A stretch of DNA of 64,000 bases from an uncultured Candidatus Marinamargulisbacteria bacterium (GTDB taxonomy: Bacteria > Margulisbacteria > Marinamargulisbacteria > SXXA01 > JAHFDB01): contig CAZFCP010000001.1 in assembly GCA_964517775.1 (NCBI GenBank), positions 115,371 through 179,370 of the forward strand. The letters are read 5' to 3'. A program made the position numbers. Shown in pieces: positions 18,001 to 24,000 of the stretch. Numbering within the stretch: the first letter of the stretch is position 1; each line of letters starts with the position of its first letter.

Positions 18001-21000
18001 AATCAGGGAATGAGAACCGAAATAGATAATGGCGTTTGCCAGCATATTTTTTTCAGAAGAAGACAAATACCCTGTCATCTCCAAAAAATCACCATGAAGC
18101 ATGATAAATGGGAATGTTTCTGTCAGGTTATTCACAAACAATTTAGCCAGCGTTTTTTTCAACCGAGGATCTGTGTCATCCGCATTAAATATATTCACAC
18201 ATTCCGACAACACTCTATCCAAAACCAAACGGCTGCTTGCAAAAATTTTTGCATGAGAATATAGTCCCGCCTCTTTTGCAATATAAAACTTCCCTGAGAC
18301 CTCCGAGATTTTATAAACGGATTTTGGAGAAAGACTGCCTATCCATTCTTTCACTGACGCTCTAAAATCGCTGGTTTCTGCAGAAAAACAAGCTGATGCC
18401 GTATCCTTTGACTGGGAACCTGGGAGTGTCAGAACCTTAGGCAATGGGACAGCTGCAGGAAACAGTAAAAAATTTGAGTTCAAACTATTGAGTGCAACTT
18501 CGGTTAAACACTGTCTTAAAAAAACCTGATGTGCCGCATCGGAATGGCCTTTGCTGCCTGGAATTTCCATCCCTAAAATCCGAATTTCAGTGTTATCTCC
18601 TGATTGTCGAGTCAGTATGTAAATACGAGGCTGTTGATAACGTGCCGTATGTATTTTTATCTTATTTAGCGAGATACGTTGCAGTGCCCATCCAGGAGGC
18701 AACTGAACAGTCGTAGGATAAGGTTCGTAAGAAAAAAACCTCACTGCCTGTATGCAGGATTTTAAAACATCAGCAGCTGCATGAGGTAAGGAATGGGAAA
18801 GGATTGAAAGACTTTCAGAGATATTAACTCCAAAATGGTCAAAAAACACGGAACCGAACATATCCAGAACTGGAACAGTTGTTCTGCACGATACAATTTT
18901 CAGCATTAGTTTTATCCCTAAATAAACGTGATCGATTTCCACTATTATCGGTCAAACAACAGAAAAATTGCAGAACTTAAACGAAGCCTTATGATAAACT
19001 TATTTAAAAAAAGGAGACTTCGACATTGTTCAAAATAATAGCCTTAACTCAGGAAGCCAGCGTTTTTTTTAACGGACTTGGAAGTGAGTTTACCCCACCA
19101 CATGTTTTCAGAATGGAAGCCGAACGTCGAAGTCAGGGCCTGCCCGTTTATAATTTTAGACTTGGAGACATCGACAAAGGACTGAATATTGCACCGGCTT
19201 TTAAAAAAGGCATGGCGGATGCACTTGAAGAACCCATCGTCTACGGAGCTTCTGCCGGGCTACCAGAACTTAGGCAACTGTTGGTAGAGAAATTCCGCAA
19301 AACGTTTAATCTCACCGGAGACCCTTTAAACGTTTGCGTTGGCCCTGCAAAATCCTTTATTTCCAAATTGATTTTAACCTTGCTTAATCCTGGAGACAGA
19401 ATGGCCTTATCCGCCCCCAATTATCCTATCTGGGAATCATGGCTGGGCACAGTAGGTGCTGTAAAATCACCTTATATATACCGTCCCGATCACACAGAAT
19501 CTTTGGATATCGGGTCTCTCGAAAAAGCCCTAAAAGGTGCAAAATGCCTGGTTATTAATGACGATCACAATCCAACCGGCATTACATTTTCCAGCAAAAC
19601 CGTTAGTCAGATCATGGAACTGCTGAACAGGCCTGAAAACCGGAACATTCTGGTAATTGTCGACATAGCCTATCATGCTGTTCGCTATGAGGGAGTCAGT
19701 AATATTGCCCCACTTATTCAACTGATTATGGATCAAAAACGTGGCGCAATTATATGGTCATATAGTAAAGAAGGCGCCATGACAGGATCTCGGCTGGGTG
19801 CTTTGGCTTTGCCCAATATTCCATTACACAGCTCATCCTCAGAAATAACCACGCTGTTTCAGGCCATCTCCAAACTTCAATCCAATGTGGAATCCTGTCC
19901 ACCAGGGCCCATGCAAAAAGCTTTACTAAGTGCGTTAAAAGATGAAGAAGGCTCTCAACAAACTTTACACGCCAATAACAAGATTTTAAAAAGAAGACGT
20001 GATGTTTTAAGCGACAGTTTATCCCAAATCCCCGGAATTCGGTTTACAATCCCAAATTCCGGCTTTTTCTTTTGGGTAGATAAAACAGATCTTTTACATC
20101 AAACGAGACTTGGAACCTGTGAAAATTTTCGATGTGTCCTTCTTAAAGAAACGGGTATCAGTGTTGCTACACAGGATCAATTTGGTGCTGATTCGTCGTC
20201 TGGTCAAACATATATTCGGCTATCATTTTCGGGAATGTCTGAGGAAAGTATTCAGCTTGCAGGAGATCAGTTTAAACAGTGGTGTGATATGAAAACCAGG
20301 TTACGAACTTGAGTGCTAAAAGTTAGACAGACTGTCGAAAACCATCCAGAACACCCTTATAAAAATCTGCTTTTTCTGACTGAACAAAAACCTGAACAGT
20401 AGACACATTAACCGGTGAAGAGGCAACAAACGTGCCATATTTTTCAGGTTGTCGCAAAATATCAGGATACGGCATTACATCGGTTAAGGAGGAGTAAACG
20501 CCTGCCCCGGTTAAGCGTTCGATAATCTCTCTGGGACATTTATCATAGGTCAAATACTGAGATACTTTCCGTGCCGTTCTAACCATAACAGCAGGAGGCC
20601 CTTCGGAATGACTGACAGAATCAAAAATGGCACCTTTAACATCAATGGGAACCAATGCTGCCATAAACAAAACATGGGTTGGAATATGAAGCGGATTACT
20701 ACCGGAGTAGTTAGGGTGAACATAACTCAGATCTTTTGCATCGGAACAAATAAAGCGGAACTGCTGTTTATTAACCAGTCCCAAGTCATGAAGTCGGTCG
20801 ATCAGCTTTCGTGAAAGCGCCAGGGCTTCAGGATCAATATCAATCAGATTAAATGTCCAGTTGCTAGAAAACATGCTCAGTAAAAGGGTTGTCATTGGCA
20901 AGGCTCCACTGCCAGGAAAGCTGATATGAAGCGGCTGCTGCGATGAATACCCGGCTCCTATTACACTAATCATAAACCCTTCGGCAGCTACAGCGGCCTC

Positions 21001-24000
21001 ATAAAAATCAAGATTGGGATATGGGGATAAAAAAGCCTCTAATTTCAGAACTTTTCCAGCCCGAATACGCTCATCCTGAGTAGCATTTGTCGGCAATGTA
21101 ATGTCTCTACAGTCCAACACAGAGCCCAGGGGTTTTTGAAGGGCCGCTTCAACCACCCGTTTCTCAAAATCTCCTTCAGTGACACCTCGTAATTGCTTTA
21201 ATTCAACAGAGCGTGCCCTAAGCTGAGGATCAGTTTTAATCGCTCTGTAAACATCATAATAGTCCTCAGAATGGATTTGCCGGATTAAGAAACGAGGCTC
21301 AACAGCCAGATGCATCACATTCAAATGCTGTTCCGGGTTCGCAGGTAAACCTGTAGTTTGTGCAAATACTTTATATTTGCTTAACAACGAGGTAGGACTC
21401 TCATCAAATGTTTTCTTCAAAAAAACATCTGGGGCTAAACGCTGTTGCATTAATTTCAACCGGCTCGGGTCAGTCACCAAAGGCCTGAATCCAGGCTTAT
21501 TATATGTGCTAACAACACAGGGTATACTCTGTGCATTACTCATCTTATCTCTCCCTTTATTTATATTACGTACACAAAATCCAGAACCCAAGTATTACCC
21601 AAACGCATACCATCCCTTTATTGGCATACAAGGAGTCTAAGGCAATTGTTAACAAAGGTCTGGCGACCACTATGTTACACACAATCGCAATTATTGTACA
21701 AAAAAATATTTTAACGGATAATTGTCAGTTTTCCGGTTTTCTTGGATTGACCGTCCGTAATCAGGTAAATATACACACCTGAAGCCACATCTTTTCCATA
21801 ACTGTTTTTACCATCCCATTTCCATAAACTTATACCAGGGCTAACCTCTCTTACAAGTTGACCAGAAATTGTATAGATTCTAATAACACTGCTATTGGTA
21901 ATACCGCTAAATGTAATTTGACCATCTATGGTTCCATTACTCATATCACTGTCATTTGGAACCCATGGATTTGGATACACAAGCACACTATCCAACGAGC
22001 CTACAAATCCGATGGATTGCGCTAATCCCCAAACACCGGTTTTATCGATGGTTACAACAACACGGCTATTTTCAACATCCATTGCATATTTAACAGCTGG
22101 TTTTTCCCAAACGCCTTTTGAGCTATTGAAGAACACCGGTGTTAATGTTGCTTTATCCACATCAGAAGCAGAAGCATTGAATGGAATGCCCACTTTAATA
22201 TCAAAACCTTTCAAGTCTATTTCAGTTGCGATGAGGTTATCAAAACTCTTCGCATAGATTTGATAGATACTCTTTTGTAGAGAAGCAGGCATCGTTAATG
22301 ATGGATCATCGAAGCTGAATGTAAAGGCATCCTGCTGTGTGCTGACACTTAAGCCTGTACGTGATGCGTACGCTTTTGGATCAAGCTGTTTGGAGAATAA
22401 TCCAACCATGTTTGCAGGTAATGAGTAGTAAGGTTGAAGGATGTCTCCGCCAGACTTAGGCGCAACAGCACCAAGGGATGCGATGGAAATCAGCGTTTGA
22501 CCGGACAGAGTTCTATGATCCCAGATCACACGGGTAGATTCGTTATACACGTCATCAGTTACTTTAAGGACGATATCTTTATTGGCAAGATCGAAGTTGG
22601 TGTTAAAGTATTTCCAAGTATTGTTGTTGTACGTTGCCACGTATTCGGATGCACCATTCACAAGAATTTGAACAGTAGCATTAGCTAGCTGGTTACCGTT
22701 AATATCCACACGCCATTTTCCGTTGGTAAAGGTGGCTTCACCGCTGGTAATGAGGTTAGTAGTTGGTGCTTTTGTACGTAAGGTTAAGCTGGCAGTCATG
22801 GTGCCAAGATTTTTCGCAAGGTCCCAGGCCTTTAAGGTTAGAGCATTAGACCCTTCGGACAAGGCGGCGTTATCTCCGCTAATCACGGTTTGAACGGTAG
22901 CCCCCTGAGCCACAGTTCCACCGGATGCAATGACCGTGCCACTGCTGTTAACCCATTGATAACTGGTTAAGGCTCTGGCTGGCGTCCACGACAGGGTAGC
23001 CTGAGTAATGCCCGCCCTGATAACACTGGACAGGTTGGCTATCAACGGATTGGAAGGCGAATTGACAACGGTTCGAGACTGATTCGTCAGCGTCAGACCC
23101 GGAGCCCCTCGTATAAAGTTAATATTAATGGTGACAGAGCCAGACTGGTTGCCGGATCGGTCGGTGAGGTAAATACGACCTGTTGATTTTTCAGGATAGA
23201 TGAAAGCAGAGAATACATCGGTACTGGTAAACCCAACCAGCTGAACACCGCTGTACCACACGGCTGAACCCACTTCTTTATTACCTGTAACCTGGAAGTA
23301 GTTTGCGGAAGAAATAGCCTCAAAAATACCTGTAGATAGATTACGAACCAGACCTCTCGTGTTTAACGTAGGGCTTGATGGAGGTGTCGTATCCTCAACA
23401 ATGGTAAAGGTTTGATAGTTCGATGTATTGTTGGTCTGATCTACAACAAAAATATTGTAGGTTGTTGTACCTCTTGGGTAGGTGATGCTGAAACTCCAAT
23501 CCACATTGGATGTAACTTCCGCAATTTTTGTAAACGATGTCGAAATGGTTCCGGCATTGTTATTAATGGATTCAAGATACACTTTATAACCAATGTTATA
23601 GTTGTCCCCCGTTGGTTTTGATCCATAAAGAACCCGGGTATTTCCAGCGTCTTCAACACGGTGTTTGGTAGCTTCGTTCAACTCTTTTACATAAACGATG
23701 CTGTTAAAGGTCACGATTTTAAAGGCTGTGGTATCCACGTGGAATTTGGTTATCCGTGGAAGAGGATCGCGGTAATCAAACTGAGTTGGCGAAAACTTAT
23801 TGGATGCGTAAACAGCCCAGTAGTAGTTACCATCCGGTAAACGGGTGTTGTAATTGGTAAATGTTGAAGGCTGCCAGCCGGAATCGTATACAGCAGCACT
23901 GTCGATATTGGTTGTAGGAGCAGGAGCAAACCAGCTGTCTACCAACCAGATTTTCAAACGGTGGTAGATGGTATCGCCGTCAGCATCTGTTGAGTTTCCC

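Follow-up and report, generated by a model that had tools for sequence, protein, structure and literature searches.

A very divergent, stand-alone nicotianamine synthase-like gene in a Margulisbacteria-like bacterium

Does a bacterial gene that carries the motifs of plant nicotianamine synthases (NASs) belong to a metallophore pathway, and is the aminotransferase encoded beside it part of that pathway? The question is raised by a 64-kb stretch of DNA (the window) from an uncultured Candidatus Marinamargulisbacteria bacterium, in which the initial annotation described a full-length, plant-type NAS homologue that might form a free-standing pathway with its neighbour. Chelators of the nicotianamine type have a central role in the metal nutrition of plants and in the acquisition of Zn and Ni by bacteria during infection. 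To our knowledge, the sole bacterial route to them couples the synthase CntL with the opine dehydrogenase CntM. The analysis reported here points, on balance, to a stand-alone cytosolic 3-amino-3-carboxypropyl (aminobutyrate) transferase of the NAS fold, which would depend on S-adenosylmethionine (SAM) and appears to be a long-branch member of an uncharacterised environmental family, here termed long NAS-like.

Gene, family and fold

The window contains a stop-free open reading frame (ORF) of 422 aa that begins with a TTG at position 21591 (20323..21591, minus strand). An ATG at 21543, 16 codons downstream of the TTG, is preceded by a strong Shine-Dalgarno sequence, AAAGGGAGAG, and is also where the NCBI protein P0001 (406 aa) begins. 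For both reasons, ATG 21543 is probably the true start rather than TTG 21591, and the 16 codons at the head of the 422-aa ORF are probably not translated. Residue numbers refer to the 406-aa protein unless stated (the 422-aa numbering is higher by 16). The gene is delimited as follows:

20323..21543, minus strand: NAS-like coding sequence, 406 aa (P0001), stop codon included
21549..21558, minus strand: Shine-Dalgarno AAAGGGAGAG, read from the sequence, ending 5 nt before ATG 21543, with its GGGAG core 7 nt upstream
21544..21591, minus strand: in-frame stop-free leader, probably untranslated 5' region, containing the Shine-Dalgarno of the downstream ATG at which the NCBI call begins

The Pfam NAS profile (PF03059) matched at 29.6 bits against a gathering threshold of 27.1, aligning ORF residues 215-315 with profile positions 116-203 of 276. 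A word-indexed search of 5.8 billion proteins matched the query to itself alone, and an exhaustive HMMER search of 1.84 billion representatives retrieved 59 relatives at E≤1e-3, the best of which was P0002 (E=3e-16, 40% identity over 127 aa). The query and 37 relatives were aligned, and this 38-sequence alignment was used both as a profile and as the multiple sequence alignment for AlphaFold2. Nearly all of its sequences (35/38) match Pfam NAS. Against the PDB, the profile retrieved the archaeal enzyme MtNAS (E=1e-20, residues 62-259) and CntL (E about 6e-10), and no other entry at E≤0.01.

The AlphaFold2 model obtained with this alignment had a predicted local distance difference test (pLDDT) score of 82.3 and a predicted template-modelling score (pTM) of 0.84; it was used instead of a single-sequence run, which was unusable (pLDDT 32). 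Foldseek ranked MtNAS first for the model (template-modelling score 0.71-0.73, normalised to the target). The modelled two-domain architecture, an N-terminal helical domain followed by a C-terminal SAM-binding Rossmann domain, superposes on NAS and CntL structures, and the structural alignment, which includes the helical domain, covers 255/264 residues of MtNAS and 221/228 of CntL. Judged by sequence profiles and this model, the protein has the NAS fold and is a very divergent member of the NAS family.

The obvious alternative, which the initial annotation had itself raised, is an ordinary class I SAM-dependent methyltransferase with a chance likeness to NAS. It is disfavoured and very improbable. 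The query matches no methyltransferase family in Pfam or NCBIfam, the top Foldseek entry is MtNAS, the N-terminal helical domain aligns along with the Rossmann domain over the residues counted above, and the NAS-specific Glu, Tyr and GSGxLP loop are all present. The NAS profile check that had been suggested at the outset thus came out in favour of NAS, both with Pfam and with the family profile.

Within the NAS family, the nearest kin are the long NAS-like proteins. Against a profile of these built without the query, the protein scored 168 bits over residues 96-379, which suggests membership on a long branch. The long NAS-like proteins (P0003-P0060) are 365-434 aa in length, with bacterial examples at loci L004, L010 and L012, and their function is undescribed in the cluster look-ups and literature searched. 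The query and P0002 are long-branch singletons, their identity of about 40% being confined to the Rossmann core (about 130 aa). A profile search of the genome collection with a three-sequence alignment retrieved one locus, L004, and the window's own genome was not among the matches.

The isolation of the gene is partly explained by poor sampling of its lineage. The glycyl-tRNA synthetase GlyS encoded in the window is 52% identical to its best non-self match, the JGI protein P0187, and its named matches, at 36-42% identity, belong mostly to Candidatus Margulisiibacteriota, including Marinamargulisbacteria, Termititenax and Saganbacteria. The best non-self homologue of the neighbouring aminotransferase is 35% identical. 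From these two values we take the lineage to be deep and sparsely sampled. Candidatus Ruthmannia eludens, which lives in Trichoplax as a symbiont and belongs to Margulisbacteria, was weighed as the source and is not supported, its GC content being 37% and that of the window about 42%.

The NAS-like ORF is a real gene. Its GC content at third codon positions (GC3, 0.376) and its codon usage (Kullback-Leibler divergence 0.12) lie inside the range of housekeeping genes, so recent horizontal acquisition is unlikely; this idea, raised by the eukaryote-like motifs and an ankyrin-repeat neighbour, was rejected. No promoter or terminator signal above shuffle expectation was detected. A palindrome upstream of the gene, TTGTTAACAA (21646..21655), was examined as a possible binding site of a metal regulator and dropped, as it is not enriched (6 matches in the window against 5.1 expected). 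The sole other copy of the gene lies on a 1.7-kb contig (L001) of GCA_013565695.1, with 100% identity except over about 100 nt where the contig ends; by its sequence, this contig comes from the same organism and is not an independent occurrence. The mismatched stretch (L001 1..100 against window 21800..21900) falls inside the coding region of a type IX secretion system (T9SS) C-terminal domain and resembles a contig-end join to a paralogous C-terminal domain, or strain variation.

Active site and relation to the known synthases

Reference sequences were taken from the supplementary alignment of Seebach et al. 2023 (PMC10248798) and aligned with the query and its relatives. The colinearity of the NAS motifs reported by the initial annotation was borne out against the plant, fungal, archaeal and CntL references; we count six blocks, A to F, and not four. 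Block D is a single conserved Asp, D268, and the others are as follows:

21163..21177, minus strand: motif A, E123-G-D-F-E127 (E139/E143 in the 422-aa numbering), reading TEGDFEK against eukaryotic AEGxLE
20980..21027, minus strand: motif B, S173-PYPNLDFY181-EAAVAAE188, with Y181 equivalent to MtNAS Y107 and AtNAS1 Y106 by alignment
20833..20919, minus strand: motif C, Gly-rich SAM loop F209-PGSGALPMT followed by I234-DID237, the acidic ribose-binding strand end, placed by the alignments
20641..20679, minus strand: motif E, THVLFMAALVPID, T289-H290-VLFMAALVPID301, with VPID at the position of plant VGMD
20566..20580, minus strand: motif F, R322-TARK326, then the C-terminal P…VN motif; the Arg is present in 38/38 family members, and Lys replaces Gly where 35/38 have Gly

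In AtNAS1 and MtNAS, the pairs E77/Y106 and E81/Y107, respectively, are experimentally essential, and deprotonation of the acceptor amine is their demonstrated or proposed role; AtNAS1 also needs E73 and the motif 206-VGMD-209 (PMC10248798, PMC10491745). E127 of the query aligns with the catalytic Glu (MtNAS E81, AtNAS1 E77), which is kept in 37/38 family members, and E123 with the plant-essential AtNAS1 E73. The Tyr of motif B is invariant (38/38). Motif C is the part of the protein to which Pfam NAS, NCBIfam CntL and PDB phmmer all align; in it, G211 and G213 are invariant and D235 and D237 conserved, the strand end reading NLIDIDPEA. Motif E has two extra residues relative to MtNAS and CntL, and eukaryotic NASs have two further. 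At the VGMD position, the query has the insertion and the Asp, and not the Gly and Met. The query retains the catalytic Glu and Tyr, the two glycines of the loop, the acidic end of the strand and the invariant Arg.

Other parts of the motifs are degenerate: FPY..NY reads YPNLDFY, D..F.AAL reads H..F.AAL and RSAhG reads RTARK. Among the replaced residues is a near-invariant Asp, present in 35/38 members, which is H290 in the query. P0002 shares with the query the loss of the FPY, D and G residues typical of the long NAS-like family. H290 was also considered as the equivalent of the 'TH' of CntL; the resemblance is shifted by one alignment column and was not used.

These losses bear on the possibility that the gene is a decaying or non-catalytic, lineage-specific remnant encoding a pseudo-enzyme, which we regard as improbable. 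Its orphan-like distribution, with a self-match alone in 5.8 billion proteins and remote relatives only among 1.84 billion representatives, would fit such a history, as would the loss of several near-invariant residues and a Pfam score barely over threshold. Against this, the 406-aa frame is intact, with a good Shine-Dalgarno and native codon usage, the two domains are modelled with confidence, none of the residues known to be essential for catalysis has been lost, and divergence of this order is expected from poor sampling of the lineage, as the GlyS and aminotransferase identities indicate.

The query does not begin as the known synthases do. The initial annotation had given it an N-terminal extension of about 100 aa, of which about half stands: the catalytic Glu lies about 50 residues later than in AtNAS1 (E127 against E77) and the Tyr about 75 residues later (Y181 against Y106), so there are about 50 extra N-terminal residues and a further insertion of about 25 aa between motifs A and B. 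The extension itself is the following segment:

21403..21543, minus strand: N-terminal residues 1-47, modelled with low confidence (pLDDT <50 for residues 1-25 and 37-47), with no counterpart in reference NAS or CntL proteins

These residues, the sole genuine N-terminal extension, are probably disordered according to the model. Inspection of the N-terminal sequence revealed no signal-like hydrophobic stretch, no signal-peptide predictor having been applied.

When the query was compared with profiles of the characterised classes, the plant, moss and fungal NAS profile scored best (42 bits, residues 85-329), ahead of CntL (22 bits) and archaeal NAS (17 bits). Pairwise scores to all characterised references were at most 23 bits, which is near noise (best plant NAS 22.6, MtNAS 15.3, CntL 13.9). 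The description of the protein as full-length and plant-type accordingly holds in part. The double Glu, the insertion after AAL and the eukaryotic profile score agree with it; the Pfam match to positions 116-203 of 276 only, the low pairwise scores and the closer kinship with the long NAS-like family do not. By sequence, the query is not an orthologue of plant NAS, and the long NAS-like family is closer in features to eukaryotic NAS than to CntL.

The eukaryotic enzymes (plant classes I and II and the fungal and moss class III, such as AtNAS1, NcNAS and PpNAS; PF03059) have in common with the query the two-domain fold, a stand-alone gene, the catalytic Glu and Tyr, the extra Glu (AEGxLE, in the query TEGDFE), the post-AAL insertion with its Asp (VGMD, in the query VPID), the GSGPLP loop (GSGALP), the Arg of RSA and the C-terminal P...VN. 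They differ in lacking the roughly 50 additional N-terminal residues, the 25-aa insertion between motifs A and B and another insertion before the C-terminal motif; in the query, moreover, FPY..NY, D..F and SAHG are degenerate, and its host is a bacterium. Archaeal MtNAS (thermonicotianamine synthase, PDB 3FPE) is likewise stand-alone, and its E81 and Y107 have equivalents in the query. However, it is only 16-18% identical and shorter (266 aa against 406 aa), and it lacks both the first Glu of E-x-x-x-E and the post-AAL insertion, which the query has.

Bacterial CntL proteins, from the staphylopine, pseudopaline and yersinopine cnt systems, share with the query a bacterial host, the SAM loop and the catalytic Glu. 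In the alignment, however, they lack the conserved Tyr of (F)PY..NY and the first Glu, both of which the query keeps. A cnt system is defined by cntM directly downstream of cntL, with genes for export (MFS/EamA) and import (Opp-/FecCD-type) within about six ORFs (PMC7438024). The query fails the CntL equivalog model, has no cntM directly downstream and is accompanied by no CntK, exporter or importer in the window. Plant, fungal and archaeal NASs make their product without partner enzymes, whereas CntL needs CntM (for CntM, PMC7438024). The long NAS-like proteins resemble the query most, being of similar length, with the same insertions, and stand-alone without a conserved neighbour; the query and P0002 are outliers even there, at no more than 40% identity over about 130 aa.

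Neighbouring genes and other loci in the window

All ORFs of at least 150 aa in the window were profiled. Among them we detected no opine dehydrogenase/CntM or histidine racemase, no EamA, MFS or MatE exporter, no FecCD or Opp importer and no match to an aldo-keto reductase (Aldo_ket_red) resembling deoxymugineic acid synthase (DMAS). The initial observation that opine dehydrogenase and metallophore transporters are missing beside the gene therefore extends to every profiled ORF. The neighbours encode an ankyrin-repeat protein, tRNA-His, RmuC, DapA, DnaG, a T9SS cargo protein, PorV/PorQ, TPM, LemA and ProC. The neighbourhood is housekeeping in character and also includes RpoD, MgsA, TsaD, RpoN and LipB.

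The gene closest to the NAS-like one is an aminotransferase gene, whose convergent orientation and distance are as first described, with 10 bp between the two stop codons:

19026..20312, plus strand: class I/II aminotransferase, 428 aa, convergent neighbour (Pfam Aminotran_1_2, E=4e-44)

In plants, nicotianamine aminotransferase (NAAT) is likewise a class I aminotransferase. A two-step pathway similar to that of mugineic acid, in which the adjacent aminotransferase deaminates the NAS product, was therefore weighed, and we consider it quite improbable. The short distance between the genes, the class of plant NAAT together with a weak match to TIGR01265 (tyrosine/nicotianamine aminotransferase), and the unusual divergence of both proteins from their nearest database relatives speak for such a pathway. 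On the other hand, because the two genes converge, they cannot share a transcript or promoter. The TIGR01265 score of 76.6 bits is far below the cutoff of 292.45, and the model ranked 22nd of 61, being outranked by 21 other aminotransferase models. The best PDB relatives are aspartate, aromatic and alanine aminotransferases, no DMAS-like reductase is encoded in the window, and DapA, 5 kb away, and further amino-acid genes nearby make a housekeeping role plausible. By sequence, the aminotransferase is a generic class I enzyme resembling aspartate aminotransferase.

The pairing also fails to recur. Nine loci of NAS-like relatives were read (L002/L003, L004, L005, L009, L010/L011, L012, L013 and L014), four of them kb-scale contigs with little flank, and in none (0/9) does an aminotransferase or opine dehydrogenase stand beside the NAS-like gene; nor is there a NAS-like gene at the loci of the three nearest relatives of the aminotransferase (0/3, L006-L008). 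When six loci were compared all against all (L002, L004, L005, L009, L010 and L012), the NAS-like gene was the only gene in common. The larger subgroup of relatives may be eukaryotic; at L005, L013 and L014, long open frames make up a fraction of 0.41-0.86. Proximity is thus the sole support for a pathway of NAS and aminotransferase. Of the free-standing metallophore pathway first proposed, the free-standing part stands and the link to the aminotransferase falls, given its convergent orientation, its enzyme type and the absence of the pairing from all 12 of the related loci read; for annotation, the lesson is that this adjacency should not be taken for a pathway.

Two relatives have neighbours of their own that deserve mention. 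At L012 (8001..10280), in another bacterium, an ATP-grasp protein (DcsG_N / GSH-S_ATP) is encoded 37 bp downstream of a 434-aa NAS-like protein, P0045, and in the same orientation. The two could form a two-gene pathway, and this is the sole suggestive partner among the family members seen. At L004 (9329..14677), in a metagenome-assembled genome named 'bacterium BWSM_10', the NAS-like gene is followed by genes for a NolX-like protein, of a family associated with type III secretion systems, and a cysteine protease of calpain type that has EF-hand motifs; both neighbours look eukaryote-like or effector-like.

Several other loci of the window were recorded. A complete operon resembling those for bufferins, which are ribosomally synthesised and post-translationally modified peptides (RiPPs), occupies 47100..49554 on the minus strand, with the gene order of copper-chelating bufferin systems:

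49249..49554, minus strand: precursor-like ORF of 101 aa with a signal peptide and six C-K-G-K repeats, no Pfam match
48323..49207, minus strand: MNIO enzyme of the MbnB/TglH/ChrH family (Pfam E=5e-104)
47548..48390, minus strand: DUF2063 protein
47100..47534, minus strand: DoxX protein

Copper-binding RiPP (bufferin) systems have been described (PMC11626156, PMC12452194). By sequence, this operon is a better-supported metal-related locus than the NAS-like gene, to which it is unrelated.

The ankyrin-repeat neighbour is an 856-aa protein (16372..18942, minus strand) with C-terminal ankyrin repeats (Ank_2, E=2e-17) and an N-terminal region of about 490 aa without a family match. The repeat region bears a weak resemblance to Dot/Icm Ank effectors of Legionella, which hints at an interaction of the organism with a eukaryote. 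Upstream of the NAS-like gene, on the same strand, a 1935-aa secreted-type protein is encoded (21711..28447, minus strand), the last ~95 residues of which match the PorZ type IX secretion C-terminal domain (E=3.5e-15). Beyond it is encoded an outer-membrane protein of the PorV/PorQ family, whose score of 89.3 bits falls just short of the cutoff of 90. T9SS components are present in the window; GlyS groups the host with Margulisbacteria and not with Bacteroidota.

Farther away, at 36094..40587 on the plus strand, a 1230-aa protein, of which the first ~180 residues alone match the ATP-binding domain of PPDK_N / PEP synthase, is followed by a 259-aa dual-specificity phosphatase of a type associated with polymorphic toxins (Tc-R-P, E=1.6e-14). 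An ORF6N-domain protein, an unannotated 204-aa ORF and a Fic/SoFic adenylyltransferase lie at 7745..11119, beside a tRNA-Met gene, and the stretch 8001-10000 is low in GC (0.34 against about 0.42 elsewhere). This region may be a small mobile or toxin-antitoxin-type island.

Proposed activity and its meaning

The reading we favour, that of a stand-alone SAM-dependent aminocarboxypropyl transferase, starts from what is observed of the family, the fold, the retained catalytic and SAM-binding residues, the absence of partner genes from the window and the native codon usage. Enzymatic activity, chemistry, product and any role in metal binding would follow by analogy, and a metallophore role would follow from family membership alone.

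Homology with MtNAS and AtNAS1 suggests that SAM would be bound in the C-terminal Rossmann domain, by D268, the GSGALP loop and the end of the IDID strand. An amino-acid-type acceptor would occupy a buried chamber between this domain and the helical N-terminal domain, where E127 and Y181 would deprotonate its amine; the amine would then attack the C-gamma of SAM, and methylthioadenosine would be released. The enzyme may act iteratively and make a complete nicotianamine-like polyaminocarboxylate alone. Iterative, partner-free action is possible because E123 and the VPID segment are kept and no CntM-type partner would be needed nearby.

Several points weigh against this reading. The Pfam pass by the single sequence is marginal, 2.5 bits over threshold, and other single-sequence support is weak: NCBIfam CntL (NF033601) scored 13.4 bits against a cutoff of 350 (E=0.037), and phmmer against PDB sequences gave E=0.08 for MtNAS and E=0.2 for CntL. 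Apart from the identical sequence, no relative among the 1.84 billion representatives was better than E=3e-16. The query departs from its family at five near-invariant positions (F>Y175, Y>N177, N>F180, D>H290 and G>K326), and two of these changes are next to the catalytic Tyr. Motif retention has limited weight, since some plant NASs with intact motifs, namely the class II enzymes MetrNAS2 and AhNAS5, did not synthesise nicotianamine in vitro. A secreted metallophore would need an exporter or importer, and none is encoded nearby. To judge from the best non-self match of GlyS, no close relative genome has been sampled.

The substitutions that would line the chamber (H290, K326 and YPN for FPY) suggest an acceptor or product other than those of the known enzymes. 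Carried further, they allow a protein with the same fold and SAM chemistry whose acceptor is a metal-unrelated metabolite or a macromolecule and whose product is not a nicotianamine-like chelator. We consider this unlikely, though the most probable of the alternatives. The five changes just listed agree with it, as do the long branches of the query and P0002, which share about 40% identity over the Rossmann core only, the lack of adjacent transporter or metal-regulated genes and the mixed contexts of the relatives (NolX-like and calpain-like genes at L004, ATP-grasp at L012, an ABC-2 transporter at L010). However, all characterised members of the fold family make a metal-chelating amino-carboxylate, and the query keeps both the Glu/Tyr pair and the second Glu of eukaryotic type.

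A bolder version of the favoured transferase reading can be put forward tentatively, as a rather unlikely proposition. The long NAS-like family, including the query, would be a sixth class of nicotianamine-type synthases, bacterial and independent of CntM, with an iterative active site of eukaryotic type (the double Glu and the post-AAL insertion), making nicotianamine or a new poly-aminobutyrate chelator alone. Published genome mining has been anchored on CntM, and its authors state that CntM-independent systems escape it (PMC7438024). If such a class exists, it would be the first bacterial route to these molecules without an opine dehydrogenase, and the family would be a candidate link in evolution between the NASs of bacteria and those of eukaryotes, whether through descent or through gene transfer.

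The fold, the family and the chemistry are already known, and existing Pfam annotation flags the protein as NAS. What is new is modest, namely a stand-alone, long, eukaryote-like gene of the NAS family in a Margulisbacteria-like bacterium, within an environmental family of about 60 representatives. If inactive, its product would be an ordinary divergent hypothetical enzyme from a poorly sampled phylum; if active, it would represent an unexplored branch of aminocarboxypropyl-transferase chemistry.

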